A stretch of DNA of 64,000 nucleotides, taken from contig CAWGLD010000005.1 of NCBI GenBank assembly GCA_963823335.1, forward strand, positions 434,831 to 498,830, in the 5' to 3' direction. The DNA comes from an uncultured delta proteobacterium (GTDB taxonomy: Bacteria; Desulfobacterota; Desulfobacteria; Desulfobacterales; B30-G6). Position numbers and translations under genes: made by a program. Shown here one piece after another: positions 41,584 to 63,654 of the stretch (position 1 is the first letter of the stretch; each line of letters opens with the position of its first letter). The notes beneath the pieces were generated by a model. It had not been told where the DNA came from. It worked only from the letters and a program-made list of their open reading frames with translations, and ran no database searches.

Positions 41584-41654
41584 ATGCCCGAAGGGTATGA
41601 TGAATGATCATCGATCAGGTCGATCGATGATTGTCTGCGTATGTCTGCGGCAAA
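41584..41654. repeat. CACAGAC-unit element, right arm only (copy a)
   Basis: ATGCCC-GAA-GGGTAT...ATCATCGATC-AGGTC-GATCGATGAT.TGTCTGCGTATGTCTGCGGCAAA. Confidence 0.85.
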
Positions 41655-41662
41655 ATAAATAG

Positions 41663-41734
41663 AACTCAATGAACCCAACAAACTCAATAAACCCAACAAA
41701 CTAAACAAACCCAATGAACCCAATAAACTCAAAA
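41663..41734 (+). repeat. 9-bp tandem repeat x8 (AACYCAAYR) overlapping the sat-cysC start
   Basis: AACTCAATG AACCCAACA AACTCAATA AACCCAACA AACTAAACA AACCCAATG AACCCAATA AACTCAAAA. Confidence 0.9.
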
Positions 41735-43435
41735 AACCAGACCCCCCACGGTGGTAAACTCATCAACCTGCTTGTGGACCACCCACGTGCCACCAAGCTC
41801 AAAGAAGTGGCACAGAGTTTGCCGGATATTATTCTGAACGATCGCCAGCTGTGCGATCTCGAGATGCTGGCAACAGGCGCATTCAGCCCGCTGACAGGGT
41901 TCATGTGCCGGACAGACTACGAGTCTGTTCTGGACCGCATGCGTCTACAAGACAACACCTTATGGCCTATACCCATCTGCCTGGATATTTCGGAGACCAA
42001 GGCCGGCACCCTGGAAGTCGGCCAGTCCGTTTCCCTGCGGGATCCCGAAGGCTTTCTGCTGGCGATCCTGCACATCGAGGACATGTGGCCGGTGGAAAAG
42101 GAAAAGGAAGCTACGCTTGTGTACGGCACGCTGGACAGCAGGCACGACGGTGTGGGGCATGTTTTCAATACGACCAAAACCTGTTATGTGGGTGGGCGGA
42201 TCGACGTCTTGAGCCTGCCGATCCATTCGGATTTCAATCAGCTGCGCTTGACACCTGTGGAGATACGGCAACTATTTGAAAAGCTCAACTGGCAGAGGGT
42301 CGTCTGCTTTCAGACAAGAAACCCTATTCATCGTCCCCACTTTGAAATGACCATTCGGGCCATGCGGCATGCCAAGGCCAACATCCTGATTCACCCCGTG
42401 GTGGGTATGACCAAAACCGGCGATTTTGATCATTTCACCCGGGTTCGGTGTTACCGTTCCATTGCCGACCATTATCCACCCAACAGTTGGATGCTGAATC
42501 TGCTACCGTTTGCCATGCGACTGGCGGGTCCCCGGGAGGCTCTCCTCGATACCATTATCGCAAAAAATTACGGCTGCACCCATTTTATCGTGGGAAGAGG
42601 ACACGCCAGCCCGGGGAACGATGGTAATGGAGAACTGTTCTACGAAAAAAACGAAGCCCAGAAGCTTGCCGAAGCATTCAGCCAGGAAATCGGTATGAGC
42701 ATCGTGCCCTTTGAAGAACTGGTGTACCTGCCTTTCGAAGACGAATACAAGACGGTGGATCAGGTGCCCGAAGGCGCCCAAACAATCTCACTTTCCGGCA
42801 GCGACATCCGCCAGCGTATCCGCAGTGGCAAAAAAATACCGGACTGGGCCACGTTCCCGGAAGTCATGGCCGAACTTCAAAAGGCCTATCCACCCCCCAA
42901 AAAACAGGGGGTCACCATTTTCATGACCGGACTTTCCGGCTCTGGAAAATCGACCATCGCCAAGGTGCTTTATGCAAGATTCCAGGAGATCGGCGAACGA
43001 CCGGTGACGCTTTTGGACGGGGATATTGTGCGTCGCAACCTTTCCAGTCAACTGAGTTTTTCAAAGGAAGACCGGGATACCAACGTGCGACGCATCGGAT
43101 TTGTGGCCAGTGAAATTACCAAAAACAGGGGCATCGCCATCTGCGCTCCCATTGCGCCCTACACGGCCACAAGACAGGAGATCAGGAAAATCATTGAAGA
43201 ATACGGGGGCTTTATCGAAGTGCATGTGGCAACACCTCTCGAAGAGTGCGAAAAACGGGACCGCAAAGGCATGTATGCCAAAGCCAGGGCAGGCTTGATC
43301 AAAGGGTTCACAGGTGTCGACGACCCCTATGAGGTTCCTGAATCGCCCGAAGTAAAAATCGACACCACCCACATTACCCCCGAAGAAGCCGCCCAGGAAG
43401 TGCTGCTGTATCTGGGACATAAGGGATATATTTAG
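41714..43435 (+). CDS. sat-cysC: Bifunctional sulfate adenylyltransferase / adenylylsulfate kinase
   Basis: PHGGKL, FQTRNPIHRPH, GPREA, NYGCTHFIVGR; TGLSGSGKST, LLDGD, FTGVDDPYE. Confidence 0.93.
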   Translation: MNPINSKNQTPHGGKLINLLVDHPRATKLKEVAQSLPDIILNDRQLCDLEMLATGAFSPLTGFMCRTDYESVLDRMRLQDNTLWPIPICLDISETKAGTLEVGQSVSLRDPEGFLLAILHIEDMWPVEKEKEATLVYGTLDSRHDGVGHVFNTTKTCYVGGRIDVLSLPIHSDFNQLRLTPVEIRQLFEKLNWQRVVCFQTRNPIHRPHFEMTIRAMRHAKANILIHPVVGMTKTGDFDHFTRVRCYRSIADHYPPNSWMLNLLPFAMRLAGPREALLDTIIAKNYGCTHFIVGRGHASPGNDGNGELFYEKNEAQKLAEAFSQEIGMSIVPFEELVYLPFEDEYKTVDQVPEGAQTISLSGSDIRQRIRSGKKIPDWATFPEVMAELQKAYPPPKKQGVTIFMTGLSGSGKSTIAKVLYARFQEIGERPVTLLDGDIVRRNLSSQLSFSKEDRDTNVRRIGFVASEITKNRGIAICAPIAPYTATRQEIRKIIEEYGGFIEVHVATPLEECEKRDRKGMYAKARAGLIKGFTGVDDPYEVPESPEVKIDTTHITPEEAAQEVLLYLGHKGYI

Positions 43436-43509
43436 ATCAATTTTTAATTTTGAGTTTTTAATTTTGAATTGCGGTAGGAGATTGGTGATAGTCTGTATTT
43501 TAATATCTT

Positions 43510-43771
43510 TTAGCCACAGACCCACACAGACATTCACAGACATTTTATTTTTCTCTTCGATCGACTTGATCGAAGAGAACCAATCACTCTATCGCGAAAT
43601 TTAACAAGTCTATGATTCGAGAAACATCAAACTTGCCAGAATGTTATATTGGAATGATCAATAGATAAAAATGCCCGAAGGGCATGATGATTAATCATCG
43701 ATCAAGTCGATCGATGATTGTCTGTGTCAGTCCGTGTGCTCAGGGGGTAAAAGAATGTAATCTGTGGCTAA
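43510..43771. repeat. CACAGAC-unit inverted-arm element (copy b, complete)
   Basis: TTAGCCACAGAC...GACTT-loop hairpin...TGCCC-GAA-GGGCA...AAGTC-loop hairpin...TCTGTGGCTAA. Confidence 0.9.
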
Positions 43772-43786
43772 TAAAAAGGAAAACCA

Positions 43787-44366
43787 ATGAAAAAATACTT
43801 CACCTATATAACCATATTCCTTGCTGTCAGTTTCATCTTTGTCAACACGCACCCGTGTCTTCGCCCAGGAGGAAGCCAAGGACACCTACCTCATCGGCAG
43901 TGGTGACATCCTCGAAATCACCACCTGGAAAGAAGTCGATTTTACCCGGGAGGAAATTCTCGTGCGTCTGGATGGTATGATTACTTTCCCGTTAATAAAT
44001 GACATCCTGGCCAAGGGCCGAACTTCCATGCAGGTAAAGCAGGATATCGAGGAGAAGCTCAAAGATTACGTTGAAAGCCCCATTGTAACGGTTACCGTGC
44101 GGACATCCGGCAGCAAGCGTTTTTACATCCTGGGAGAGGTCGTCAACACCGGTGAATACCCGCTTGTAAAGGGTTTGACGGTTCTGCAGGCCTTTGCTCT
44201 GGCCGGTGGTTTCACCGAGTGGGCTTCTAAAAAAGAAATCATCCTCATGCGTAACGAAGACGGCCAGGAAAAGATATTCCGTGTCAATTACAAGGACATC
44301 ATCAAAGGCAAAGACACCAGTCAGAACATCAAAATTCAGCCCGACGACACCATAATCGTGCCGTAG
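43787..44366 (+). CDS. Polysaccharide export protein (Wza/Poly_export-SLBB); signal peptide out of frame (indel near 43850)
   Basis: YLIGSGDILEI, VRLDGMITFPLI, GEVVNTG, ALAGGFT, QPDDTIIVP. ATG 43787 after AAAGGA encodes MKKYFTYITIFLAVSFIF in a different frame. Confidence 0.85.
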
Positions 44367-44398
44367 GGTAGGTTATGAAGCATAATGATCTTCTATAT

Positions 44399-44673
44399 TT
44401 AGCCACGAGCAGGATATACAGAAATTTATATTTATTTATTCGAGGACTTGATCGAATAAAAACAATCATCGCTTCGCGAAAGCAAACCAAGATTCTAATA
44501 AACCTATGATTGTAGAAACATCAAATTTGTCGGAGAATTTTCTTGAAATGATAAAAGATTTTAAGTTGCCCAAAGGGCATGAGATTTAATCATCGATCAG
44601 GTCGATCGATGATTGTCTGTGTCGGTCCGTGTACCCCTCAAGGGGGTAGTATACAGAATGTGTCTGTGGCTAA
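44399..44673. repeat. CACAGAC-unit element (copy c, left arm degenerate)
   Basis: TTAGCCAC...CGCTTCGCG...TGCCC-AAA-GGGCA...AGGTC-loop hairpin...GTCTGTGGCTAA. Confidence 0.85.
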
Positions 44674-44708
44674 ATATAAAGAACTTGAGCTTTTGTGGTG
44701 AAAAAAAC

Positions 44709-46026
44709 ATGAACTGTAAATCGATCTTTTTTGTCTTGCTCTTCCTGATAATATTATTGCCGATATCGTATTCGGCTGCATATCAGGTAACGTTTCAACC
44801 TCGCTTGACCTTAAGAACCGAATACACGGACAACCTTGAAAGGGAAAACAATAACGAGAAGGATGACATCATCACCACCGTGTCTCCGGGCTTTACCCTT
44901 TCCGCTTTCGGACAAACACAGGGCCTCAACCTGGCTTACGACCCGGCCTATGCCTGGTACCGGGATAATTCGAAATATAACTCACCGCGGCACACAGTCA
45001 ACCTGGGTATCTGGAAACAGGCCACCCGCAACACCCGGCTCTACATCAATGACGCTTTCTTCTACACCGAAGACCCCGGGGTGGAAGATTTCAACACCGA
45101 TGCCGAAGACCGGCGGGGTCGGGAACCCTACTACACGAACACCGCCACCGTGGGCATGACCAACCAGTTCGGGCCATCGGATGTTGTTACCCTGGAGTTC
45201 AACCGCCGGGCCTTGGTAAATGACGACGACACCCAGGATGACTCCTTTGAAAACAATCCCACGGCCTCGCTGACCTACTACCCCTTTCGAAACTTTGGAA
45301 CGGAAACGAACGTTTCTTTCAGTCAGACCGATTTTGACAACAACGATAAAAACGTTCAGCCGGCGGATGATTTTGAAAATTACTTTGGCTCGATTCGCCT
45401 GATCCAACGCCTGTCGCGAACGTTCAGCACGTTCGTGGGTTACAGCTATACACTCATGGATTATGTGGATAATGAAGACGCAAACTATGAACTGCACTAC
45501 CCCAACATCGGTTTTTCCTATGAAAGGGAAGATATCGCGAACATCAATGTCAGTGCAGGCTACCTGATAATAGACCGTGAAAAGGAAACCGAGGGTTTGG
45601 AAGATGATAAGCGCTTGCAGGTCAATGGCAGATATCAGCAGGGTCTGGCAATTTCGTACAGCTTCCTTAAGCGTCACGGGTGCCAGCGGTTACGATCAGC
45701 CTTCCTTTGACCAGGATGATTTGGGTTTGCGCATTTATTATGACGCCACTGCTGTCTTCAATCACGAGTTCCTGCGGGACATCAGTTATGAAATAAACGG
45801 CGGTTATCGATTGGATCATTACATCGATATCAACCCGGAAAGAAAAGATAAAACAAGCACGGCAGGTGTCGGCCTCATATTCAGCCGTGTCGAATTTATG
45901 ACCACCAGAATCGACTATGCTTACCGAAATGTGACCTCCGACGAGACAGAAGAAGAATACACCGAAAATCGCGTTTCCTTCACCATTATCCTGACACCCC
46001 GTAATCCGATTTATCTGAAACGATAA
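44709..46026 (+). CDS. EPS-associated outer-membrane beta-barrel protein, frameshifted near 45630
   Basis: Signal peptide, PRLTLRTEYTDN, DDIITTVSPG, C-terminal YTENRVSFTI; split over ORFs ending at 45710 and 46026. Confidence 0.75.
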
Positions 46027-46089
46027 ATAGGATAAAATTTAAGGGTCTTGGACTAGAGACAGAGCATAAATAGTTAGCCTAGAGCTCTT

Positions 46090-47430
46090 GTCTGATGGAT
46101 AGCGTGGCAATAATAGCCTTGTATATCTGGTTTTAAAAAGCATTATCGTGTTAACCAATGGAGCCGATCAATTTGCGCATGGTAAAAGTCACATTAACGG
46201 TATTGAATCGTTTTGGGCCTTTGCCAAAGGTAGGCTAACCGAGTTCCGCTGGAATTGGTGATTCTACTGTTCTATTTACATTTAAAAGAATACGGACCTA
46301 TAAACAATAAAAAGGCTAAACAGCTGTTCTTACGTACAGGCGAAAGTAAAAAAGCTACAATTCTGAGTTCGACGTATCTGTCTTCCGCCAGCAAAAGACA
46401 ATAATGCATGAAATATCTCAATGGTCGGTTTGGGTTTCATGATTACTTTGTTTTTACCTTTTTTCTTAATAGTTCGTGCGGGAACTCTATGTTCCCAGCG
46501 AAACTCAAATTCATGCAAATATCGATGCAAGTGGCTCTGGCTTAGATAATGGAAGACACCTTGCTTTGCACGTTCAAGGAGAGCACCAAAAGATTCGGCT
46601 GTATTGATATGTACCGAGTCTCTTACATATTCTTTTTGGCCGTGTGATACTGTTAAATGTGATGCATGTTGTTGACCGATCTTTCGATACGACAGATGAC
46701 CGTCAGTCATCAAATTTGAATCGGTATCAATCCACATTTCAGTCACCGGCTGGATTTGATCGATACTATCATTAACAATTGGAACGGCCCGTACCGAGCC
46801 ATTTCGCTCTGCGGCTACCAGTACTCATTGTTTTTGAGTACCTCGACCGCGTTTATGAGTCAAACCTTGTTGGTAGCGGGGTTTACCCCCAAAATAGGTT
46901 TCGTCTACTTCGACGATACCGCTTAACTTACGAACCTGGTCGGGTGCCATCATGGTTCGAATGGCATGCCCCATCCTCCATGCGGTCGGCTGGGAGACAC
47001 CGATCCATCTGGATAGCACAACCGAGGAGATACCCTTGCTGGAGCAGACGATGTAATAAATGGCCTGCAACCATTTCCACAAAGGCAGTTTGGTACTATG
47101 AAGCGGCGTGTGTGTCGTAACCGTGAAATGGCTTTTACATCGGGCACATTCGTATAGCCCCTGGCGTACGGATTGTCCTTGTAAATGATAGGACTTTTCA
47201 CATTTACAATGTGGGCAAACACGTCCGTCAGCCCAGATGATGGATTCGAAAAATTGGCGACATGCTGCTTCATTTGGTAATTGTTTTCTAAGTTGGTCAA
47301 TGTTCATCGCTTACCTCCTTGTGGTTTGGAGGAAAGCATATCAGATGCGTTTGACAGATACGGTCACAACTATCCTACTTTTTGTTTGTAGGTCCGAAAG
47401 AATATGAGTTTAGGTTTAATCACCGCAAAA
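46090..47430 (+). pseudogene. Older IS1595-family transposase remnant, interrupted by a second IS
   Basis: KKHYRVN...SHINGIESFWAFAKGRL...FYLHLKE left of 46292 resumes as (KEY)EFRFNHR right of 47397. Confidence 0.75.
46293..47396 (-). mobile_element. IS1595-family element (1104 bp) with 8-bp TSD; transposase has one in-frame TGA
   Basis: TIRs CGGACCTATAAACA / TGTTTGTAGGTCCG; AAAGAATA at 46285-46292 and 47397-47404. Zn ribbon CPHC..CARC, VEVDETY, MTDG, HINTAES, YLHEFEFRW; ORFs 47307-46825 and 46746-46330 are in frame. Confidence 0.92.
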
Positions 47431-47559
47431 AGGAATAAATGCCATCATCTCTGGCGCTTCCTCCCAGGCGACCTTACGCATCAAGTTGGGGCTGTGAAGG
47501 GTTGGAATAACCGACGAGGTTCAATCGTGGCATCTGTCGAATACCCCCTTGATCACCGA

Positions 47560-47730
47560 TGTTAAAGGTCGAAGCTTCTGGAAGAAGCATCAATCGAATC
47601 GGGTCCGTCCTGAAATGTTCAACACGGATTCTAGATGCTCAGTTCACGAGTAGGTGCATTCACCGATGTTTCGACCAATGTCATAACCTCAAAATCAGCA
47701 CGGACGGTCGAGGCCGGGTTGAGGTCTCTA
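47560..47730 (+). pseudogene. IS3-family integrase-core fragment
   Basis: Mosaic of frames gives FNTD..AQFTS..FT....KISTDGRGR, resembling the IS3 NTDQGSQFTS...ISMDGKGR motif. Confidence 0.55.
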
Positions 47731-48033
47731 CCTTCATTTAACTACTCACCACATGAGTAATGCGGCAGCAGTTCCATTGCAAGCGCACTACCTACTTAAT
47801 ATGTAACTACGGCGTTGCTATCACAATGATTAAGTAGTTTTTCTCCCAATCTATATCTCTTATTATTCATACCCTGTTTTTAGATAGCTGTAATTATTCA
47901 CAATATATTCTTTTCACACGCTGCACGCTTAATTGTCATCCAATTTCACAGTGTCTATAAGCCCCATATGACTTCGGTGTCGCAATGATATGTGTTTGTC
48001 AATGCTAACTGACATCAGTGAAAATGAGGAAAA

Positions 48034-48664
48034 ATGAATAAGCTAGGCATTTTAACGAAGTGTGTTTTTATTAATTGCAGGGATTGCAGGACACTGCTGC
48101 CGCATTACCAATACTCCTAACTATAATTAGAACGGCAGCAAGCGTTGCTTTGTAGGATGTGAACGAATTATGGTATTGACTTAGCGCAAACATGACTCAT
48201 ATCTGGTCGGACGCCGTCCCTCCTTGAGGCGTACACCTTCTCTTTTGTTATTAGATGAAGGGGACAGTGATACACTTGACTAGATAGACTTTACCCGTTC
48301 GCCAACCTAGTTATGTTGGATAGGATGGATACGCTAGAGTTGAGGCAATTAGGCCTTTATTCGAACCTCCAGGTTGCTGATCGTTGATTGGGACTTGGGA
48401 AGCATATTATGGTCATATTTTTGAGACATTTAAAGCCAGTAGTTTGCCATTGGCTGCCTGTTTCCTCGTCATCTATCTTGCTGATGAGCTGCCACTTTGA
48501 TGTATCGTCCCATGCTACGCTGCAGTTAGGTTTAATATATGTGTGACACTACCATTACATCTAAAGTAACCTTTGGCGTTCCCGAACCAGCATCCATGTT
48601 TCTCCTGGTACTGGTCCCACCTGGTTTGGCAGTAATTGGCAGAAAAAAGTTATTCAAAAAATAA
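48034..48664 (+). pseudogene. Disrupted PEP-CTERM protein gene
   Basis: Signal-like start MNKLGILTKCVF after GAGG; near 48578 VPEPASMFLL..., then in a shifted frame GLAVIGRKKLFKK-stop; no continuous ORF. Confidence 0.6.
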
Positions 48665-49940: not shown

Positions 49941-50297
49941 TTAGCCGCAGACGTTCGCAGACAATTACATACATTTCTTCGGACGACTTTGTCCGAAGAA
50001 AAACAATCTTCGCTATCGCGAAATATTCATACCTCATTATAAATGGTATTATTGTATACTCCGGCAACAAAAAATACCAACCTCGTCAGGCCGGGCTTGA
50101 TCCGGCATCCAGCCTTTTTCTATATTCCTGCCTTCGCAGGAATGACAACCGTTGGGATGTTTAATTGCCACATTAATAACATTTCAAAGAGCTGTAATGG
50201 ATGAGTAGAATTGTAATATATATGATGAATGATAAAGTGCCCGTAGGGCATTGAAGTGAAACTTCGACCATATCGGTCGAAGATTGTCTGCGGCAAA
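49941..50297. repeat. C(G)CAGAC-unit element (copy d) with a nested REP
   Basis: TTAGCCGCAGAC...TTCTTCGGAC-GACTTT-GTCCGAAGAA...TGCCC-GTA-GGGCA...CTTCGACC-ATATC-GGTCGAAG.TTGTCTGCGGCAAA. Confidence 0.85.
50085..50146. repeat. GTCA...GGAATGAC-type REP pair nested in copy d
   Basis: GTCAGGCCGGGCTTGATCCGGCATCCAG ... TTCCTGC-CTTC-GCAGGAA-TGAC. Confidence 0.7.
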
Positions 50298-50621
50298 AAG
50301 AAACACGAACCTTCAGCCAGTAACTATATCCCATAGAAATTAAAATTCAAAATTAAGAAATCAAAATTGATTGATAGCCTTCAGGCAGCTTATCAGCCAA
50401 CTCTTCGGTACTGATTGTGTAACATTATTCATATCTATGAAGTTTACCTTCTATGGCAGACGTATCTGGCGACGAAGGCGTAAAAAATAAATTGTGAAAC
50501 GATTATATGTCTGTATTTTTATGCCCAAATATGGTATAGAAATTAACAATTTGCATATATAGCCACAATATGTAGTGTTTTTACCTTTTGGGGTTACAAT
50601 TAATTTTGAAAAAAAATATGT

Positions 50622-50636: not shown

Positions 50637-50865
50637 TTTAGTTTAGGCTGAATTTGACGCTATCTCAGCAGTGTAATAGCAATCGCCAAAATCACACACT
50701 AATAAATAAAAAGTTATAATAACAGCATATTAAACGAATGTGTCAATGTAATTGACCAGGCGGAGCTGTGTGTGCGCTGCTCATTTTGTTCGCAGCGCAC
50801 ACAGGTCATAGCTGATAGCTCATAGGCTGTAGGAAATAAGCTGAGAGGAAAGAGGAGTAAAGGAC

Positions 50866-51012: not shown

Positions 51013-51136
51013 TGAGACTTTTTATCCCCATGATTTTCAGCTCCTAAAAGCAGCAAACTCCTATGAGTTGATGCGCGCCAGCGCATCATTAAATTCTAAC
51101 ACCTAAATCCTATCAGCTATCAGCTATGAGCTGCGA

Positions 51137-52318
51137 ATGGAGTTGCAAATGCAAGTGCCATTTCTTGATTTAAAGGTGCAGTACCGGCAAATAGAAAATG
51201 AAGTATTGCCCATGATCCAGGATGCCATGGCGAACGGTATGTTCATCGGTGGGCCACAGGTTTCCGGCTTCGAGGAAGAATTCGCAGCTTTCTGCGACAC
51301 CCGATTCTGCGCCGGCGTCAACTCCGGCACCGACGCCCTGCGGTTTGCCCTCATGGCGCTGGGAATAGGACCGGGAGACGCCGTCATCACCGTGCCCAAC
51401 ACCTTCATCGCCACCACCGAGGCCATATCTCAAGTCGGCGCCAAACCCGTGTTCGTGGACATCGACCCTCATACCTGCAACATGGACCACAATATGCTCG
51501 AAGCGTGCTTCGAGGGGCAGGCACAAGGCGCAAGGCACAAGGATCGTCTCACGTCTCACACCTCACATCTCACGACCAGGCCCAAGGCAGTGATGCCAGT
51601 CCATTTGTATGGTCAGCCGGCGGATATGGACCCAATCCTTGGCTTCGCTGAAAAATTTGGTTTGAAGGTCATCGAAGATGCCTGCCAGGCTCACGGTGCC
51701 ACGTACAAGGGGCGAAAAGCCGGTTCCATGGGATCTGCCGGTTGTTTCAGTTTCTATCCGGGAAAAAATCTGGGCGCCTTCGGCGAAGGCGGGTGCCTGG
51801 TTACAACCGAGGAAAAGACATTGCCGTCACGATCAAGATGATCCGCGATCACGGTCAGGCCCAGAAATACTTTCACGACATGGAAGGTTACAACGGCCGC
51901 CTGGATGCCATACAGGCCGGGGTGCTGCGCATCAAGCTGAAAAGACTGGCGGCCTGGAATCAGAAACGACAGAGAAAATGCCAGGTATTATGACGCTTTG
52001 CTGGCGGATGTACCAGAGGTCACTGTGACCCATGAAGCGAAAGACAACGTCTCCGTGTATCACCTTTACGTCATCCAGGTGGATGATCGTGATGCACTGC
52101 AGCGGTTCTTGAGCGAAAAAGGGATTGCCACAGGCCTGCATTATCCATTGCCGTTACACCTGCAAAAGGCCTATGCGCACATGGGACATAAAAAAGGTGA
52201 TTTCCCGGTAACGGAACGAATCGCCGATCGCCTGCTCTCGCTGCCCATGTTCCCCGAGCTGACCCACGAACAGATGGATTACGTGGTCGATTCGATAAAA
52301 TCGTTTTTGGGAAGATGA
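51137..52318 (+). CDS. DegT/DnrJ/EryC1/StrS aminotransferase (WbpE/WlbC-like), two frameshifts near 51812 and 51972
   Basis: VPFLDLK, NSGTDAL, PVHLYGQ, EDACQAHG, SFYPGKNLGAFGEGG; RDHGQ..GYNGRLDAIQA; HYPLPLHLQ, LSLPMFP spread over three frames. Confidence 0.88.
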
Positions 52319-52346: not shown

Positions 52347-52568
52347 CGCAGACAATTACTTGTCTTCGATCGAGGTCGAAGTAGAAATCTTGCTGCGAAG
52401 TATGCAACCGGTGTTTGGCACCATTATCACTAAACAGTTAGATTGAACATATGAAAGTAATGGCAGCTTGGAAGGCATAAAGAGAATAGGCAAGTATATT
52501 TTGCTCAAAGGGCATGATATGATCTTCGACCATGTCGGTCGAGGATTGTCTACGTTGTCTGCGGCAAA
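52347..52568. repeat. C(G)CAGAC-unit element (copy e, degenerate left arm)
   Basis: CGCAGACAATTAC..CTTCGATCGAGGTCGAAG ... TCTTCGACC-ATGTC-GGTCGAGGA.TGTCTACGTTGTCTGCGGCAAA. Confidence 0.75.
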
Positions 52569-53624: not shown

Positions 53625-54167
53625 GTGTAAGGTGTAGGGTATAAGGTTATTAGGTAAATAATGGTGTTAGGTTTATGATGGGGTTCGCAGTAAAAGGCTT
53701 AGTGGGGAGCGCATAAGGTGATTGTTCAAAAATTGAAAACAAGAGTGAATAGGATTAAGATTGGGTAAGTTTCAGGAATTGAATGTATGGAAGCGAGCTA
53801 AAGACCTAGCAGTTTACACTTATAAAATATCGGATGAAGGAAGATTCGCAAAAGACTTTGGTTTAAGGGATCAAATGAGGCGAGCGGCTGTGTCAATCTC
53901 CAGCAATATCGCTGAAGGCGATGAGCTCGATACAAATAAACAAGCGATCAGATTTTTTTATATCGCAAAAGGTTCAGCCGCTGAATTACGATCACAGGCC
54001 ATTATCGCAGCGGAAATCGGTTACCTTAAAGATGAGAATTACAACCATATTGAAGAAGAATGTAAAATAATATCCGGTATGCTCGGTAGCCTTATCAAGG
54101 CAAGAGCAAAACATAACTGACAACCCACCAACAAATCCATACACCATATATCTTATACCCTATACCT
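53625..54167. repeat. Inverted heptamer arrays bracketing the four-helix-bundle gene
   Basis: Left GGTGTAA GGTGTAG GGTATAA GG (53625-53647); right CCATACA CCATATA TCTTATA CCCTATA CC (54138-54166). Confidence 0.75.
53761..54120 (+). CDS. Four-helix-bundle protein (23S rRNA IVP / TIGR02436-type family)
   Basis: FQELNVWKRA, FGLRDQMRRAAVSISSNIAEG, IAKGSAAELRSQ. Confidence 0.92.
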   Translation: MGKFQELNVWKRAKDLAVYTYKISDEGRFAKDFGLRDQMRRAAVSISSNIAEGDELDTNKQAIRFFYIAKGSAAELRSQAIIAAEIGYLKDENYNHIEEECKIISGMLGSLIKARAKHN

Positions 54168-54644: not shown

Positions 54645-55019
54645 TTTGCCGCAGACACACGCAGACATCCACGGACATTATCTCTGTCGACTTGACAGAG
54701 ATAATACTTCCATGCCCTTCGGGCATATACTTCACACTTAAACAATCTCTCTGGAAAGACGGTTAATATCTGAACCGAAAAAGCGAGCGCATTCCCCTTC
54801 ACTTCGTGAATGAAGGTATTTTCAAATAATAGTTACAACATGATACGCCAATGTTTCCAGATCGCTATTACCTTAGTTGAGGTTTTTGTAACGCAATATG
54901 AATGCGTTTTAGAGTATTAAAATAATATTTAAGTCAAAAGTGGATTTTATGCCAGAAGGGCATGATAGTTGATCTTCGGCCATGTCGGCCGAAGATTGTC
55001 TGCGTTCGTCTGCGGCAAA
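54645..55019. repeat. C(G)CAGAC-unit element (copy f)
   Basis: TTTGCCGCAGAC..ATTATCTCTGTC-GACTT-GACAGAGATAAT..ATGCCC-TTC-GGGCAT ... ATCTTCGGCC-ATGTC-GGCCGAAGAT..GTCTGCGGCAAA. Confidence 0.88.
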
Positions 55020-55035: not shown

Positions 55036-55500
55036 ATGCGTGATTCTTCAGCTAAACATGAGATGAACATTAACGACGTCACTTATAAAATCAATGGAGC
55101 CATATTTGAAGTCAATCGTGTTCTTGGGTCTGGTTTTATGGAGAAAGTATATGAAAATGCACTGCTTATCGAATTACGGAAACTCGATCTGAGAGCAGAA
55201 AATCAGGTTCCTGTTGATGTAACATACAAAGGCCAAAACGTAGGGGAGTATGTAGTTGATATTTTGATTGAAGATAAGGTCATTGTTGAGCTCAAGGCCG
55301 TTGAAAAGCTGACAAAGCTGCATGAAGCACAATTACTGAACTACCTGAAAGCAACCGACATCAAAGTTGGATTATTGGTTAATTTCCACGGGAAAAAAGC
55401 AAATATCAAGCGAATGGTTTTCAATATGCCCGCAGGGCATGGGAGTGAATCTTCGGCCAGGTCGGCCGAAGATTGTCTGCGTCCGTCTGCGGCAAAATAA
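55036..55500 (+). CDS. GxxExxY protein (PD-(D/E)xK-like), C-terminus extended by a repeat arm
   Basis: LGSGFMEKVYENAL, DILIEDKVIVELK, HEAQLLNYLKAT, GLLVNF. Confidence 0.92.
   Translation: MRDSSAKHEMNINDVTYKINGAIFEVNRVLGSGFMEKVYENALLIELRKLDLRAENQVPVDVTYKGQNVGEYVVDILIEDKVIVELKAVEKLTKLHEAQLLNYLKATDIKVGLLVNFHGKKANIKRMVFNMPAGHGSESSARSAEDCLRPSAAK
55426..55496. repeat. Right arm only (copy g), inside the GxxExxY 3' end
   Basis: ATGCCC-GCA-GGGCAT..AATCTTCGGCC-AGGTC-GGCCGAAGATT-GTCTGCGTCCGTCTGCGGCAAA. Confidence 0.88.
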
Positions 55501-56381: not shown

Positions 56382-56665
56382 TTAGCCACAGACCCACACG
56401 AACCCTCACAGACATTTTATTTATTTCTTCGATCGACTTGATCGAAGAAAAACAATCATCATTATCGCGAAATTTTTCGAGTCTTATAACAAGCTTGTGA
56501 AATACATATAATTCGAATTTTTCAAAATATATCTTCAGAGTGATAAATGTATTCAAAATGCCCGAAGGGCATTGATGGTAATCATCGATCAAGTCGATCG
56601 AAGATTGTCTGTGTCGGTCCGTGCACCCCTCAAGGGGGTGTTATACAGAATGTGTCCGTGGCCAA
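56382..56665. repeat. CACAGAC-unit element (copy h, complete)
   Basis: TTAGCCACAGAC ... TGCCC-GAA-GGGCA ... GTCCGTGGCCAA. Confidence 0.9.
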
Positions 56666-57714: not shown

Positions 57715-57745
57715 CTGAAAGGTCGTAGCTGATAGGAAAATCAAT

Positions 57746-58026
57746 TTAGCCACGGACACACACGGACATTCACAGACATTTTATTTATTTCTTCGATCGA
57801 CCTGATCGAAGAAAACCAATCTTCGCTATCGCGAAATAACAAAATCATTGATTGATCTTATGAATACAAAATATCTCAAATATGCCAGGGTATTATTTTG
57901 AAATGATAAAAAGAAAATTGCCCATAGGGCATGGTAGTATTTTCTCTGCCATGTCGGCAGAGGAAATGTCTGTGTCGGTCCGTGTACCCCTCAAAGGGGT
58001 ATTAAACTGAATGTGTCCGTGGCAAA
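57746..58026. repeat. CACAGAC-unit element (copy i, complete)
   Basis: TTAGCCACGGAC ... TTTTCTCTGCC-ATGTC-GGCAGAGGAAA ... GTCCGTGGCAAA. Confidence 0.9.
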
Positions 58027-58049
58027 AGAATAATAAACTGTGTAACTAA

Positions 58050-58424
58050 ATGTCGAAAACAATTCAATTAGAAGAACTTACATACAAGATAAACGGTGCT
58101 ATATATGAAGTGAACAAAGTACTCGGGTCAGGCTTCCTCGAAAAAGTATACGAAAATGCGCTATTCCATGAACTGAATAATCGAGGCATCAATGCAATAT
58201 GCCAAGTTCCAGTCACCGTTGAATACAAGAAGGTGTCTGTCGGAGAATATATAGCAGATATGATTATTGAGGATTCGGTTCTCATAGAAATCAAAGCTAT
58301 AGAGGCATTACAAAAAGTTCATGAAGCACAAATCTTGAATTATTTGAAGGCGACAGGGTATAAAGTCGGTCTTCTGGTGAATTTCACACACCCCAAAGCT
58401 GTTATAAAAAGGTTTGTATTGTAG
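58050..58424 (+). CDS. GxxExxY protein (PD-(D/E)xK-like)
   Basis: LGSGFLEKVYENAL, DMIIEDSVLIEIK, HEAQILNYLKATG, GLLVNF. Confidence 0.93.
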   Translation: MSKTIQLEELTYKINGAIYEVNKVLGSGFLEKVYENALFHELNNRGINAICQVPVTVEYKKVSVGEYIADMIIEDSVLIEIKAIEALQKVHEAQILNYLKATGYKVGLLVNFTHPKAVIKRFVL

Positions 58425-58432
58425 ATTATTTA

Positions 58433-58686
58433 TTAGCCACAGACCCACACGGACATTCACAGACATTTTATTTATTTCTTCGATCGACCTGATCGAAGAA
58501 AACCAATCCTCGCTATCGCGAAATTACCCAGGCCGTTCAGTACGGCTATGAATTAAAAAACTATCAAATATGCCGGAATATTTTATTGAAATGATAAATG
58601 AAAAATTGCCCGCAGGGCATGGATGGTAATCATCGATCAAGTCGATCGATGATTGTCTGTGTCAGTCCGTGTGTGTCCGTGGCAAA
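58433..58686. repeat. CACAGAC-unit element (copy j, complete)
   Basis: TTAGCCACAGAC..TTCTTCGATC-GACCT-GATCGAAGAA ... TGCCC-GCA-GGGCA..AATCATCGATC-AAGTC-GATCGATGATT..GTCCGTGGCAAA. Confidence 0.92.
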
Positions 58687-58714
58687 TAATAATAAGAGTT
58701 GATAAAGGTCTATC

Positions 58715-59122
58715 ATGAGAGTTCTCAAAACTGAAGACATCATTTGCGTTACAAGTAAATACCTGGAAAACAGGGACGATATAACATTTGCCTATCTATT
58801 TGGTAGTTACGCCAAAGGGAATCAGACGCATCTGAGTGACATCGACATAGCCGTATACATGAAATATGATAACCAGGTATTTGAAAAAAAGCTGCAAGTT
58901 CTCAGCGACTTGACAAAAATATTGGAGACAGACGATATTGATCTTGTAATTCTAAACAAGGCGCCCATCTCGCTGTTGACCAAAATACTGGCAAGTAAAG
59001 CTGTATTGATAGACAAGGACCCCCCTGTACGGCATACGTTTGAATCGCTGAAAATGAGAATGGGTTTTGATTTTTCCTTTTTAGAGAAACGAATTTTGGA
59101 ACAGAGGTTCTTAAATGGTTGA
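58715..59122 (+). CDS. MNT nucleotidyltransferase (MntA-type antitoxin of HEPN-MNT TA)
   Basis: AYLFGSYAKG, SDIDIAV, IDLVILN. Confidence 0.9.
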   Translation: MRVLKTEDIICVTSKYLENRDDITFAYLFGSYAKGNQTHLSDIDIAVYMKYDNQVFEKKLQVLSDLTKILETDDIDLVILNKAPISLLTKILASKAVLIDKDPPVRHTFESLKMRMGFDFSFLEKRILEQRFLNG

Positions 59123-59236
59123 CCGGACCCTTATATTGCGGAAACTGTCTGCACTTGAAGAATATTATGAGCAGAATGATTTTTTAAAATTAAAGATGCC
59201 ATCGTGAAACTCATTAAAAAAGAAGGTCAAAATTAG
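59115..59236 (+). pseudogene. Internally deleted HEPN/DUF86 toxin
   Basis: MVDRTLILRKLSALEEYYEQ (typical DUF86 start, overlapping the MNT stop) joined to a C-terminal-like FKIKDAIVKLIKK; no RxxxxH motif. Confidence 0.65.
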
Positions 59237-59251
59237 TGAAGTTGTATTTAA

Positions 59252-59578
59252 CTCACCACAGAGACATTCACTCAGTGGAATACCACTAAAGTGGCCCTCC
59301 TTTGGAGGATTCCACCGGGCAGGAAGAATGCAGAGATGTAATATTTAATCCTTGCCGGGAGATACCGGCAAGGATTAACCAATCTGACTTTCAGGCAATA
59401 AACTATCATTTTGCAATAATCTTAGTTCTTGAGGCATAAATTTCATACCCATGCAGAATATGAAATGTCGTCGAAGGATGTAAATTGCGCAGCGATTTTG
59501 ATAGTGGTTTTTATCGATCGGTATCTCCCGATCGATAAAAAAAGGTCTTCTCTGTGCTCTCTGTTTCTCTGTGGTGAG
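59252..59578. repeat. CACAGAG-unit inverted-arm element (sibling family, complete)
   Basis: CTCACCACAGAG ... TTAATCCTTGCCGG-GAGATA-CCGGCAAGGATTAA ... TTTTTATCGATCGG-TATCTC-CCGATCGATAAAAA ... CTCTGTGGTGAG. Confidence 0.88.
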
Positions 59579-59614
59579 GAAAAATAAATCCTGTAAATCC
59601 TGTCGAATAAGAAA

Positions 59615-60648
59615 ATGCCCGATATACAGATTATAAATCCAATCAAGCACCCTGATTGGGACGCACTACTGGCCACCAATCCAGGAGCCACCTTTTTTCA
59701 TACTTCCGGATGGTGCCGGGTTCTCGCAGAAAGCTACGGCTACAAGCCCCTGTACTTCACGCAGATCGACAACGGCAAGCTGACAGGCCTGCTGGCAGTC
59801 ATGGAGGTAAACAGCCTGCTGACCGGCAAACGGGGCGTGTCCCTGCCGTTTACCGATCACTGCCCGGTCATTGCAAAAGACAGACAAGCCTTCGACGCAT
59901 TGTTCGAATTTGCGGTCGGATTTGGATCGAAACATGGCTGGAAAAACCTGGGTCTTCGCGGGGGGCTTTTTTTTTAAAGAATGAAAAACCTGATGAAACC
60001 TTTTTGACGCATGAGCTGAAGCTCAATTCCGATGAAAATATGTTGCTGGCAACTTTTCGAAGCAGCACCAGACGGAACATCAAAAAGGCCCAAAAAGAGG
60101 GAATTACGGTAAAGAAAAACAATTCCCTTGAAGCTGTCAAGGCTTTTTACCGCCTCAATTGTCTGACGCGAAAGGATCATGGTTTGCCGCCCCAGCCGAG
60201 TTCTTTCTTTGAGCACCTGCACGATCACGTCATCTCAAAAAAAAAAGGTTGGATTTTTCTGGCGCAATATGATGGAAAACCGATTGCCGGTGCCGTATTT
60301 GCTTTTTTCGATGAGCAGGCTATATACAAATATGGCGCATCTGACAAGACATGTCAAACGTTGCGACCCAACAATCTGGTGATGTGGGAAGCCATCAAGC
60401 ATTTTTCAAATAACGGCTGCAGAACATTCGATTTCGGACGCACAGACCTGGACCACAAAGGACTGCTGCAGTTCAAAAGAGGCTGGGGAACAAAGGAAGA
60501 CACCCTTCACTATTACAATTACGATCTGTCCAAAAAACAGTTTGTTACCAAGTACCCCAGAATCAAGACGTCCTATCCCATATTCAGAAACATGCCCATG
60601 CCACTGCTCAAGTTAGTCGGCAGGGTGCTTTACAAGCACATGGGGTAG
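59615..60648 (+). CDS. FemAB-like GNAT protein (EPS/PEP-CTERM-associated), frameshifted at G6-C-T9 (59960-59975)
   Basis: ATFFHTSGW, VSLPFTDHC in the first frame; RRNIKKA, YKYGAS, PNNLVMWEAI, FDFGRT, LLQFKRGWG in the second. Confidence 0.85.
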
Positions 60649-60695
60649 CAATATTTGTGAGATGCAAGACGTGAGACGTGGCGAATGGCCAAAAG

Positions 60696-60894
60696 CCTGA
60701 TCGAAGAAACCCAATCATCGCTATCGCGAAGTAACAAAAGAAATGATTGACCCTATGAGTAAAGAAATATCAATTATGCCAGACTTTCCCAATAGAGTGA
60801 ATAATGGATTAAATTGCCCATAGGCATGGTAGTATTTTCTCTGCCATGTCGGCAGAGGAAATGTCTGTGTCAGTCCGTGTGTGTCCGTGGCAAA
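60696..60894. repeat. CACAGAC-unit element (copy k, left end truncated)
   Basis: CCTGATCGAAGAAACCCAATCATCGCTATCGCGAA ... CTCTGCC-ATGTC-GGCAGAG ... GTCCGTGGCAAA. Confidence 0.85.
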
Positions 60895-60928
60895 AGAAAA
60901 CAGCACTTTAAGCTCAACTGAATTATTT

Positions 60929-60997
60929 ATAGCCACAGACCCACACAGACATTATAATTATTTCTTCGATCGACGTGATCGAAGAAAAACAATCATC
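60929..60997. repeat. Left arm only (copy l)
   Basis: ATAGCCACAGACCCACACAGAC..TTTCTTCGATC-GACGT-GATCGAAGAAA. Confidence 0.85.
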
Positions 60998-61061
60998 AAC
61001 AAATAAAAATTATACTGAAAGAATTGCATATTTATCAAAATAGTTCCCATGAAATTATTAA

Positions 61062-61361
61062 ATGAAGAAATTATCACATAAAGAAAAGGACAAGCTACTA
61101 TCAAGAATCTTCTGGGATTTGCATATTAATTCCAATGAAATTAGCAAGATGCTTGACAGGCCGATTGAAGAGATAACAACAAACACTCTTCATATAAATT
61201 TATACCGTCGGCTGCTTACATCCTGTGATTGGTACACATTGATAAAACTAATCCCATTAGAAAAAATAAATGAAATACTTAGCGATTTGATCATCGAAGG
61301 AATCTATCCCAAGGACATTAAAAGAAAATATATATATGCACGGAAATATTTATCGCGATAA
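61062..61361 (+). CDS. Small hypothetical protein, probable antitoxin partner of the AbiEii-like gene
   Basis: LSRIFWD motif; overlaps the start of the nucleotidyltransferase. Confidence 0.6.
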   Translation: MKKLSHKEKDKLLSRIFWDLHINSNEISKMLDRPIEEITTNTLHINLYRRLLTSCDWYTLIKLIPLEKINEILSDLIIEGIYPKDIKRKYIYARKYLSR

Positions 61362-61923
61362 AATATACCCGCTTCAGGATAAAATCTTAAAAGTTTTGGA
61401 AGAATTAGATTTAGATTTTTATCTGACAGGAGGTACAGCTCTCAGCAGATGCTATCTCCAGCATCGATATTCTGATGATCTTGACCTTTTTGTTAACAAC
61501 CTTCCCGCGTTTAAAAACCAATGCAAAAAGAAATGGCCTGTGGACATTACAACGACATCTGATTCATTTTTACGATATTTTATTGAAGCGGGGGGAAACG
61601 TATCTATCAAAATCGACTTTGTAAACGACGTGCCCTTCCATTATGGAAAGATCGAAACATGCTCTATCTTTCACAGGGTCGATAATTGGAGGAATATATT
61701 ATCTAACAAGATATGTGCATTAAGTAGATTGGAAATTAAAGATTTGGTAGACATTATCTATATTTCACAAAAGTATGCGTTTGATTGGGAAAGAATTGTC
61801 AGTGAGGCAAAAGAGAAAGACCTATGGGTTGATCCATTGGAGATATGCCGGATGATCAATGAATTTAATTTAGATCTACTCAGCGATATCAAATGGATAA
61901 AAGAGTTAAGCGGTTCTCTATAA
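61336..61923 (+). CDS. AbiEii/AbiGii-family nucleotidyltransferase, C-terminus displaced by an IS
   Basis: FYLTGGTALSR.YLQHRYSDDLDLF, KIDFV, NKICAL.R..KDLVD; the probable native C-terminus resumes at 63013-63093. Confidence 0.85.
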   Translation: MHGNIYRDKIYPLQDKILKVLEELDLDFYLTGGTALSRCYLQHRYSDDLDLFVNNLPAFKNQCKKKWPVDITTTSDSFLRYFIEAGGNVSIKIDFVNDVPFHYGKIETCSIFHRVDNWRNILSNKICALSRLEIKDLVDIIYISQKYAFDWERIVSEAKEKDLWVDPLEICRMINEFNLDLLSDIKWIKELSGSL

Positions 61924-62920
61924 AGCTCAAGTAACCAGTACGTGTGACCGGATCTGTCACACGGCCATGTTATAACAGCCTCAAACTCAAAAAGGAGGCT
62001 GTCATGACAGATTTTACGATCACCGAAGATTTCCCCAAAAGCGAAATTGAGTTCGATCAACGGTTTTCAGACCCAAAGGCTTGTTACGATTATTTGTTTA
62101 AACAAAAATGGCCCAATGGTTTCATCTGTAAAAAATGCGGCCATTCCAAGTACTGGGTCAGTGCACGCAATCTTTATATTTGTACCCAGTGTGAGCACCA
62201 GCATTCATTGATCGCCGGTACGATTATGGACAGTTCCAAAAAGCCGATCACCTATTGGTTCAAAGCCATGTGGTGGTTCACCACCCGAAAATCAGGGATC
62301 AATGCGGTCAATCTCAAAGAGCTTTTAGGCTTTGGCAGTTACGGCACAGCCTGGTGCTGGCTGCAAAAGCTCAGACGCTGCACCATACGCCAGGATCGTG
62401 AAAAACTATCCGGACGCGTCGAAGTGGATGAATTTTTCATCGGCGGCCAAAGATCCGGCAAAAGAGGCCGCGGTGCTGAGGGCAAAACAATCGTCGCTGT
62501 CGCCGTTGAAAGATGAAACTGGAAAGAGCGAATGGGTCGCATTCGCCTGCATGTCACCTTGGATTGCTCAGCATATTCGTTAGAAACATTCATCCTTGGA
62601 TAATATTGAACCCGGCAGCACCATTGCCACGGATTCATTGGCAAGCTACAGTTTCATTGATAACGGGCCATATGTCCATGAAAAAACGAACCAAAGCAAT
62701 ACCAAGAACTATGAAAATCTATATGGCGTCCACTTGGTGACGTCCCTTGATAAAAAGACTCATCAGAGGAACTTTTCAAGGACGCTTTGAACCGAAATAT
62801 CTTCAAAATTATCTTGATGAGTATGTGTTTTCGTTTCAACCGTAGAAAGTCAAAGAGCATTGGCAAAAAGTTTATGCGTCTTGTTCAACAGGTTGTAAGA
62901 ATCGGCCAAGATTACCAGAT
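61911..62920 (+). mobile_element. IS1595-family element, transposase multiply frameshifted, right end missing
   Basis: From ATG 62004: KWPNGFICKKC..CTQC, VEVDEFFIGG, IATD, YLDEY.FRFNRR in successive frames. Confidence 0.85.
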
Positions 62921-63012
62921 CTATGGGTTGATCCATTGGAGATATTGATCCGGATGATCAATGAATTTAATTTAGAGCTACTCAGCGATATCAAAGGACT
63001 AAAAGAGTTAAG
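62921..63012 (+). repeat. About 90-bp imperfect direct duplicate of 61822-61910
   Basis: CTATGGGTTGATCCATTGGAGATAT...CTACTCAGCGATATCAAA...AAAAGAGTTAAG on both sides of the IS. Confidence 0.9.
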
Positions 63013-63136
63013 TATTAGAGAGATAAAAGAAAAAGCCAGTGTGCTACATGATGATATATTTCGAGGGAATTCCAATTCATTATTTATCGGATAGCAACTG
63101 ATACCTGAAATAATTAAAAACTCAAAATTAAAAATT

Positions 63137-63343
63137 GTGGAGCATCCATTTTTGAGTTTGCATCCAGAACAAATAAAAATATTTAAAACTTTAACCCCTG
63201 GTGAAAATCTGAAAATCGCAAAAAATTTGTATGCTTCGGCAAGGACGCTTAAAATGTCGGTTATACGGCAGCAACACCCGCAATGGAGCGAAGAAGAGGT
63301 CGCTCAGAAAGTGATGGAAATATTTCTATATGCAAGATCATAG
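63137..63343 (+). CDS. Small hypothetical protein, antitoxin-like (type usually upstream of a nucleotidyltransferase)
   Basis: IFKTLTPGE.LKIA..L....IRQQHPQWSEEEV pattern; no partner gene follows. Confidence 0.55.
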   Translation: MEHPFLSLHPEQIKIFKTLTPGENLKIAKNLYASARTLKMSVIRQQHPQWSEEEVAQKVMEIFLYARS

Positions 63344-63376
63344 ACAGCAGGTAATTTGATTAATGTTATTTTTATT

Positions 63377-63654
63377 TTAGCCACAGACCCACACAGACAT
63401 TCACAGACATTTTATTTTTTTCTTCGATCGACTTGATCGAAGAAAACCAATCATCGCTATCGCGAAATAGCCAAATCATTGATTGATCCTATGAGTTCAG
63501 AAATATCAATTACGTCAGAATATTGTTATAGAAATTTAAAAGGATAGAATGCCGAAGGGCATGAGAGTTAATCATCGATCAAGTCGATCGATGATTGTCT
63601 GTGTCAGTCCGTGTACCCCTCAAGGGGGTATTATACAGAATGTGTCCGTGGCAG
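63377..63654. repeat. CACAGAC-unit element (copy m, complete)
   Basis: TTAGCCACAGAC..GACTT-loop hairpin ... AAGTC-loop hairpin..GTCCGTGGCAG. Confidence 0.92.

Follow-up and report, generated by a model that had tools for sequence, protein, structure and literature searches.

A phased-word hairpin element and its apparent partnership with GxxExxY nuclease-like genes in an exopolysaccharide locus of an uncultured delta proteobacterium

We have analysed a 64,000-nt stretch of DNA (the window) from an uncultured delta proteobacterium of the Desulfobacterales, which makes up the end of contig C5 in an assembly of 4.37 Mb, 11 contigs and 94% completeness. The last 22 kb of the window are a PEP-CTERM/exosortase exopolysaccharide (EPS) locus on the + strand. 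Its gaps hold repeated elements with two inverted arms, each built from phased 7-nt words and a hairpin, and the locus also contains two genes of the GxxExxY family (PF13366/TIGR04256). Our comparison of such genes and their flanks across related genomes argues that the partnership of GxxExxY genes with phased-word hairpin arms is real, long-standing and widespread, and it gives signs that units have been mobile and that the locus has been reshuffled. An earlier note on this DNA had suggested that the elements are REPIN-like, that they bracket the GxxExxY genes and that the two may belong to an undescribed mobile or cassette system.

The arms, which we analysed with nhmmer profiles and a pair count, have a constant anatomy. 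Left arms and reverse-complemented right arms align as a single unit, in the order of an A/T-rich end, TT(A/T)GCC, two to three C(A/G)C(A/G)GAC words at one per 10 nt, a 10-bp hairpin, a spacer of about 10 nt and a small GC hairpin. This alignment and the covariation of the hairpin confirm the arm order given in the earlier note. There are two arm subtypes, one with two CGCAGAC words and GGCC or GACC stems, the other with three CAC(A/G)GAC words and an ATCGATC stem. In the range 41581-63619 a hidden Markov model (HMM) of the arm located 22 arms, while the preceding part of the window gave none, in agreement with repeat finding and a whole-element profile (Table 1). Of the copies made up by these arms, 8 are complete with two arms and 255-375 bp long and 5 are partial, and a whole or partial copy was present at every one of the 13 places in 22 kb that had been listed before. 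The occurrence of the element is not due to chance: a pattern of the hairpin with at most 2 mismatches has 16 matches in the 4.37-Mb genome, of which 12 fall in the final 22 kb of the window, and its reversed control has 0. All copies in the window lie between co-directional genes in a single orientation, and their right arms stop 7-60 nt ahead of start codons.

Outside the window the GAC-word family is found in one other region of this genome. A regular expression for the phased words has 26 matches, 25 of which fall in C5:476-499 kb (in the window) or in C6:171-212 kb, and the nhmmer profile matches are confined to the same two regions. The C6 copies occupy the gap between nadE and a GNAT gene, the junction of two liv ABC ATPase genes (livG|livF) and the gap between a response regulator gene and an agmatinase gene; further copies adjoin a UDP-glucose dehydrogenase gene or lie near rhamnose genes. 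Relative to the genes they are in the opposite orientation. Since these include junctions that have nothing to do with EPS, the GAC-word family is not EPS-specific. That nothing of the kind occurs in the first 41 kb of the window is correct for the GAC-word family and not for word-repeat hairpins in general, as hairpins of 100-190 nt with arms of tandem CACGAAA(A) octads lie at about 4243-4400 and 14710-14795.

The hairpin of the arm appears to be selected as a structure. In a set of 52 hairpins (29 distinct) from this genome and its relatives, 93.8% of the cells are paired against 73.4% in shuffles (0 of 500 as high) and 24-50% in slid controls; the percentage is inflated because the best hairpin of each arm served as the frame, and this takes some weight from our reading. 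The two-sided changes, which are found in 9 of the 10 stem pairs around a fixed GAC(N)T loop, are independent of this choice of frame because they occur at homologous positions. No G-U pair was seen among 272 paired cells, and none of the 10 pairs has a one-sided change. A comparison of left and right arms in 19 elements gave 517 matches, 38 G-T, 33 A-C and 103 other mismatches. Here the words are kept, the spacers are not complementary and G-T is no commoner than A-C. As the words are kept and the spacers are free, the words behave as sites that are read in sequence, like multi-site transposon ends. We read this as words that would serve as sequence sites next to a hairpin that would serve as a structure, with the DNA, or both strands, as the target of selection rather than a single transcript.

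There are three PF13366 genes in this genome, two in the window and one on C6, and all three carry word arms that fit their protein clade. The window pair is well above the family cut-offs, with 135.9 and 144.1 bits in Pfam (cut-off 22) and 140.6 and 147.6 in NCBIfam (cut-off 35). Both belong to the clade with GAC words, and that they are flanked by the elements, as the earlier note had pointed out, is correct. Gene 1 has a right arm on each side (54947-55019 and 55422-55496), the two being in direct orientation. Its domain ends at about 55419, and an alignment with the cassette of congener G004 indicates that the stop codon has been lost and that the open reading frame (ORF) now runs through the second arm. 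Gene 2 has a complete copy on either side, with the outer ends facing it at distances of 23 and 8 nt. Within the window, complete copies thus face a GxxExxY gene with their outer ends, or a right arm stands as a direct repeat, and there is no single hairpin around the gene. The C6 gene belongs to the other main protein clade and has CACAGAG words and a GAG-loop hairpin at its flanks, which the GAC profile missed.

The association is statistically real well beyond the window, within the phylum that our flank analysis covers, and we examined it on DNA picked independently of any such link, starting from the genes as well as from the arms. For the order sample we took one GxxExxY gene per genome from 29 genomes, 27 of which had enough flank, and scored how well the 250 nt upstream, at their best, match the 250 nt downstream in inverted orientation, with control intervals of the same loci for comparison. 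Inverted word arms above all 52 controls were found for 22 of the 27 genes, and a phylum sample gave 16 of 26 genes above all 50 controls; inverted word arms were formed by 0 of the 52 and 0 of the 50 control intervals. An arm-pattern scan with one genome per species found at least 130 stretches, nearly all in Desulfobacterales-type assemblies, from which 80 loci were fetched. GxxExxY stands directly beside an arm in 5 of these 80 loci, where the rough expectation, derived from 128 GxxExxY matches in 101 genomes of the order, is about 0.1. The words at GxxExxY flanks include CRCAGAC, CGCAGAG, CACGAAG, CACGGAA, CACGGAT, ACAGGAT, CACGGAGA-type words and others; the arms often begin with TTxxCC and often continue with a hairpin that repeats the word core in its loop. 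We typed the words by degenerate classes and discarded exact 6-mer calling as too noisy. On a tree of 30 GxxExxY proteins the word class changes 6 times against 13.7 in shuffles (0 of 200 as low), in line with the suggestion that words and GxxExxY phylogeny co-vary. Because gene and arms are linked and co-inherited, the match of clade and word shows a lasting partnership and not recognition. In genome G027 we also observed a fused double GxxExxY protein (C178:1551-2330, a frame of about 260 aa with two PF13366 matches) between arms of ACAGGGAT words.

Signs of mobility come from two other genomes, which hold the youngest copies that we have seen. Two unlinked G173 loci have a stretch of 473 nt in common, at 96.2% identity, which comprises exactly the GxxExxY gene and both arms; the likeness stops at the inverted termini and the flanks are unrelated. 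In G030 (C99:6192-8813), a unit of GxxExxY plus arms is tandemly duplicated at 98.6% over 920 nt. A unit beside the C6 GxxExxY gene of our genome retains only 15 C-terminal residues, 13 of them identical, and is therefore a gene-less derivative by deletion.

Orthologous junctions in congeners show turnover of the elements. At nadE|GNAT, three congeners have a GAC element (shortened in one), a fourth has an ACAGGAT-word element and a fifth (G009) has a four-helix-bundle gene whose arms are TTGAGTT/AACTCAA. Variants with CACAGAC, CGCAGAC (G004) and ACAGGAT (G005) words occupy the sat|Wza junction, where the conserved flanks are the same. The Wza|porin junction of G004 has the same element as the window, followed by a leader, a GxxExxY gene and a second right arm, and this arrangement of resident element, GxxExxY and duplicated right arm recurs in the window at another junction. 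At the site of 49948-50184, congener G007 has an internal deletion that kept the TTAGCCGC end of the element. The order of the modules between copies differs as well, being AbiE, FemAB, GxxExxY in G007 and GxxExxY, MntA-FemAB, AbiE in the window. Simple inversion cannot explain this since all modules keep the same strand; exchange between direct copies, or excision and re-entry, could yield it. The exosortase was not found in G001, G002, G005 and G008 with our protein query, and these loci could not be compared. In public reads, no run is recorded as RNA and none holds more than 0.20 of the sampled words. Contigs from four public runs are short pieces of relatives with no excision joint at an element, and many of the public-run contigs have only the 33-nt word part in common, with divergent sequence to either side of it.

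The GxxExxY protein itself looks like a nuclease under selection. The residues D70, E80 and K82 and the N-terminal E31 are invariant in 30 GxxExxY sequences, and the structure model of gene 2 (pLDDT 95) is a minimal PD-(D/E)xK core. Among solved structures it comes closest to the folds of Cas4, lambda exonuclease/RecE, AddB, Hjc resolvase and tRNA splicing endonuclease, with modest scores (best E 3e-4). A search of solved structures by GxxExxY sequence gave nothing below E 0.1, and PADLOC gave only a weak likeness to Cas4 (E 0.0025). Modelled fold and invariant residues would say "active nuclease" and nothing finer, and a 2012 survey of PD-(D/E)xK enzymes had classed GxxExxY as "Unknown".

Table 1. 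GxxExxY genes and copies of the GAC-word element, in window coordinates
Feature	Position	Strand	Context	Evidence
GxxExxY gene 1 (PF13366/TIGR04256)	55036..55500	+		Pfam E 3e-42, NCBIfam E 2e-43
GxxExxY gene 2, 124 aa	58050..58424	+		Pfam E 1e-39; D70/E80/K82 and E31 intact
Solo right-type arm, CGCAGAC x2 subtype	41581..41653	-	gap between tyrosine-kinase-like ATPase gene and sat/cysC	arm HMM, 58 bits
Complete two-armed element	43510..43771	+	gap between sat/cysC and Wza-like gene	arm HMM, whole-element profile
Complete element, left arm degenerate	44399..44672	+	gap between Wza-like and BBP2 porin genes	arm HMM, whole-element profile
Complete element, long centre, CGCAGAC subtype	49941..50312	+		arm HMM
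Partial element, decayed left arm and intact right arm	52347..52567	+	upstream of GFO/IDH/MocA oxidoreductase gene	arm HMM
Complete element, 375-nt span	54645..55019	+	after hexapeptide transferase gene	arm HMM
Solo right-type arm	55422..55496	-	abuts EpsH start 55507; direct repeat of arm 54947-55019	arm HMM
Complete element	56382..56664	+	gap between EpsH and epimerase genes	arm HMM, whole-element profile
Complete element	57746..58026	+	23 nt upstream of GxxExxY gene 2	arm HMM, whole-element profile
Complete element	58433..58687	+	8 nt past stop of GxxExxY gene 2	arm HMM, whole-element profile
Partial element, left arm truncated, left terminal words missing	60696..60894	+	after FemAB-like gene	arm HMM
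Solo left-type arm	60929..61011	+	back to back with copy 60696..60894	arm HMM
Complete element	63377..63654	+	before the last (cut) gene of the contig	arm HMM, whole-element profile

We propose that the copies in the window are gene-less members of a selfish "phased-word hairpin" family, that GxxExxY cassettes between arms of the same type are its gene-carrying members and that the nuclease acts on the arms; we would give this an even chance of being right. The arm would be a recognition module, with the A/T-rich TT(A/T)GCC end, two to three 7-nt words set one helical turn apart and a hairpin that displays the word core GAC. A nuclease of the matching clade would most likely bind the words and the loop and cut at or near the arm. 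Repair or rejoining might then copy or move cassettes and gene-less copies into junctions of co-directional genes, where the elements would be transcribed with the operon and do little harm. Several copies per locus could act as portable recombination sites that duplicate, delete and reorder gene modules. The proposal builds on the observed anatomy, hairpin covariation, gene-arm association, match of word and clade, duplication of arms plus gene, turnover at junctions and permutation of modules, and from these we infer binding, cleavage and a way of moving; action of the nuclease on the arms is likewise an interpretation, and the dependence between the two could run either way. More tentatively, and with the balance rather against it, GxxExxY might be the enzyme of a transposase-free selfish DNA in many bacterial lineages, a minimal PD-(D/E)xK nuclease that reads words and loop, spreads its cassette and gene-less copies and reshuffles polysaccharide modules, integron-like without a recombinase.

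Several observations weigh against this proposed role of the nuclease. The link between GxxExxY and the arms is positional and phylogenetic, and the match of clade and word could come from linkage alone. No GxxExxY gene lies within 1.5 kb in 75 of the 80 arm loci. This genome, at 94% completeness, has 71 phased CACGAA(A/G) arrays, most of them as 100-nt hairpins and spread over many contigs, but lacks a GxxExxY gene of the matching clade, and G027 (83% complete) has a GAC arm on at least 18 contigs while its three GxxExxY genes have ACAGGAT or ACAGGGAT arms. The copies in this genome are only 63-91% alike in pairs, therefore there has been no recent movement here. The two G173 copies showed no target-site duplication; in the window, the A/T-rich flanks are inverted in their own right and could hide a short target duplication. 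The centres of 9 gene-less window copies hold no GxxExxY remnant (all z below 2). Finally, the comparison of empty and filled EPS sites that the earlier note had called for yielded no empty site, as the site of 49948-50184 has the deletion described above in G007, and sat|Wza and nadE|GNAT hold different elements in congeners.

Because of these orphan word families, the lack of gene traces, the old copies and the missing empty sites, we keep one main rival, although we consider it unlikely. Here the word-repeat hairpins are independent and spread or persist for reasons of their own, and GxxExxY genes and four-helix-bundle genes of the type known from 23S rRNA intervening sequences (IVS) are homing-type parasites that recognise and cut particular word arrays and are copied into or beside them. 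This would account for word families without a matching gene and for the mostly gene-less arm loci. It would also fit the varied topologies of GxxExxY, which is found inside a hairpin, between complete copies or beside a duplicated right arm. Two unrelated families of small genes share the design: the four-helix-bundle gene of the window (PF05635, 53761-54120) lies between its own inverted GGTGTA/GGTATA-type word arms (53625-54165), which is the same design as that of the GxxExxY cassettes with other cargo. The match of clade and word fits target specificity as well as self-recognition. However, the recent duplicate in G173 consists of arms and gene with unrelated flanks and is not a gene dropped into an existing repeat, and, as seen from the gene-deleted unit on C6, copies that carry the gene can give rise to gene-less ones. 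Nor did we find any other enzyme that could spread the repeats, the Y1 transposases not being near them.

A lesser rival, to which we give little credence, is that the phased words are regulatory sites which bind a host protein (a nucleoid or global regulator, or an adjacent sigma-54 activator) and tune EPS expression. Words spaced by 10 nt with free spacers do resemble protein-binding arrays, the right arms end shortly before start codons, two sigma-54 activator genes adjoin the locus, and the searchable text of the Geobacter metallireducens genome paper proposes such a role for paired sites of 3-5 tandem 7-9-nt repeats (PMC2700814). But the same type of element is found at the unrelated junctions nadE|GNAT, livG|livF and response regulator|agmatinase, and orthologous junctions in congeners hold different word types or a gene cassette. 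The word type follows the clade of the adjacent nuclease and not the neighbouring operon, and neither promoter-like sites (43 against 41.6 expected) nor terminator-like sites (22 against 18.5) are enriched in our scan.

It is quite improbable, although compatible with the other readings, that the copies act at the RNA level, where they would be transcribed with the operon, fold and be cut by RNase III like a 23S IVS, and so segment or stabilise the mRNA. Their design resembles IVS, which are excised by RNase III according to the accessible text of PMC4990558. The copies of the window lie in one orientation between co-directional genes, and the whole copy at 58433-58687 is predicted to fold as a branched stem, with z against shuffles of -11.2 as RNA (-103.7 kcal/mol) and of -9.4 as DNA. 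However, the lack of G-U pairs and of one-sided changes in the stems, the lack of a G-T excess between arms and the other orientation of the C6 copies are the reasons why selection on DNA or on both strands fits better than selection on one transcript.

We think it most improbable that this is an ordinary MITE (miniature inverted-repeat transposable element) or repetitive extragenic palindromic (REP) family moved by a classical DDE or HUH/RAYT transposase, or an integron-like attC array with a tyrosine recombinase elsewhere: the terminal inverted repeats with sub-terminal repeats, the small accessory and toxin-antitoxin-type genes between copies and the permuted module order would suit it, but the arm motif is absent from the ends of the IS1595 fragments at 46330-47307 and 61944-62516, all 8 Y1-transposase (PF01797) matches of the genome are on contigs without arms (C1, C2, C4 and C7), the termini TT(A/T)GCC / GGC(A/T)AA do not fit the attC core GTTRRRY, and the whole window has 0 Rfam matches at gathering score. 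The earlier note had named a match to an already described repeat or Rfam family, or termini shared with an autonomous insertion sequence (IS) or RAYT, as what would speak against its idea; our searches, which covered Rfam, the IS1595 fragments of the window and the PF01797 matches of the genome, gave no Rfam match and no such shared termini. Its remark that the window has no RAYT or integrase gene agrees with our scan of 56 ORFs, which found IS1595 fragments and neither an integrase nor an HUH transposase; the contig ends with the window, and an integrase beyond this end would fall outside the scan.

The EPS locus around the elements encodes Wzz, a tyrosine-kinase-like ATPase, a fused ATP sulfurylase/APS kinase (sat/cysC), a Wza-like exporter, a BBP2 porin, a DegT aminotransferase, a GFO/IDH/MocA oxidoreductase (probable start 52613), a hexapeptide transferase, the exosortase EpsH (start 55507), an epimerase and a FemAB-like protein. 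Interspersed are accessory genes, namely the four-helix-bundle "23S IVS" gene, the two GxxExxY genes, an MntA-type nucleotidyltransferase gene, AbiEii and the IS1595 fragments. Directly upstream of the locus are two genes for sigma-54 activators with a Fis-type helix-turn-helix, at 35511-36554 (-) and 37559-38968 (+), which are candidate regulators of it. The Wza-like gene (43684-44366), the BBP2 porin gene (44613-46026) and the DegT aminotransferase gene (51137-52318) are each split over two frames and are either pseudogenes or errors of the draft assembly. The IS1595-type transposase at 46330-47307 (-) is broken into two ORFs; around it, halfway through the locus (about 46-49 kb), 3 kb of sequence lack a long + strand ORF. 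The second IS1595-type fragment (61944-62516) is found in the AbiEii region between two 63-nt direct repeats that are 94% alike (61848-63012), and contigs from two public runs connect 61897 to 63000, without the 1102-nt piece that holds it.

Other repeated words also occur in the locus. About eight 9-nt words AAC(C/T)CAA(C/T)(A/G)A at 41663-41738 run into the annotated start of sat/cysC; all five congeners searched have them in dispersed form, and in G009 they make up the right arm of the four-helix-bundle gene cassette. Another word family, AGCTGATAG / CTATCAGCT, is present at 50802-50833 and 51102-51133 as an inverted pair 268 nt apart upstream of DegT, and again at 57717-57740, and in G004 and G005 similar words separate the element from the conserved flank. 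Two perfect inverted copies of a 26-nt sequence, CAATTTTTAATTTTGAGTTTTTAATT, are found at 43438-43463 and 63112-63137, 19.6 kb apart; the first copy is the flank just outside the sat|Wza element and is conserved in G004 and G005. In an attempt to join the end of the contig to C6, the G007 sequence past the end of the window had no match of 200 nt or more in this assembly.

GxxExxY is a large protein family with no assigned function, and a fixed physical partner gives it a first testable substrate. If the nuclease does act on the arms, intergenic repeats would be made or moved without an HUH or DDE enzyme, which would explain repeats that genome papers have filed as regulator sites. It could also be a source of rearrangement in surface-polysaccharide loci, where close relatives differ in module order.

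Of the known systems, this one works most like REP sequences, bacterial interspersed mosaic elements (BIMEs) and REPINs with RAYT, yet it departs from that family in the features that define it. Both are intergenic palindromic repeats, often inverted-arm doublets, with one flanked gene thought to act on the repeats. In contrast to RAYT, the gene here encodes a PD-(D/E)xK nuclease and not an HUH transposase, the arms consist of phased 7-nt words and a fixed-loop hairpin, the GAC-word family is found in two regions and not in tens to hundreds of dispersed copies, and no HUH gene stands at the repeats. The description as REPIN-like is therefore apt for the inverted, hairpin-forming arms that face each other in the 8 complete copies but not for their distribution. 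As in MITEs, gene-less copies outnumber gene-carrying ones and there are terminal inverted repeats and internal-deletion derivatives, but no transposase was found, no target-site duplication was seen and the internal hairpins are conserved by covariation. With integron attC arrays the elements share a structured imperfect palindrome after each co-oriented gene or module, a varying module order and toxin-antitoxin genes among the modules; they differ from these in their length of 255-375 bp, in their termini, in the core biosynthetic genes between copies and in that no IntI was found.

The paired word repeats themselves have a precedent. The annotation of G. metallireducens treats paired tandem hepta- and octanucleotide repeats as putative sites for a "global regulator" of the IHF/HU kind (Aklujkar et al. 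2009, PMC2700814). The searchable text of that paper describes sites between genes that come in pairs on opposite strands, each with 3-5 tandem repeats of 7-9 nt, at a variable distance from one another, inside operons (for example proB/proA) and replaced by other sequence in the sister species. When reverse-complemented, the consensus of its class 2, TCTCCGTS, corresponds to the CACGGAGA-type words found at the flanks of GxxExxY genes; unlike here, the repeats are read there as regulator sites, and the searchable text makes no link to a nuclease gene. The open-access literature that we searched held no description of word arms paired with GxxExxY/PF13366/TIGR04256 or with S23p or PF05635/TIGR02436. 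Thus "undescribed", the word used in the earlier note, suits the pairing with GxxExxY as far as that literature goes, but paired word repeats without a gene are not wholly new, given those of G. metallireducens.

In design, the elements are closest to the ORF-bearing IVS of 23S rRNA, which carry an S23p/four-helix-bundle ORF in Coxiella and Leptospira. These too have a small gene or none between inverted arms in a transcribed region, and in the accessible text of PMC4990558 they are called selfish, with their way of moving not established. They differ in that the present elements lie between protein genes and not in 23S rRNA, carry a nuclease as cargo and have no G-U pairs. In this very locus a four-helix-bundle gene has word arms of its own, and in G009 one takes the place of a GAC element at an orthologous junction.

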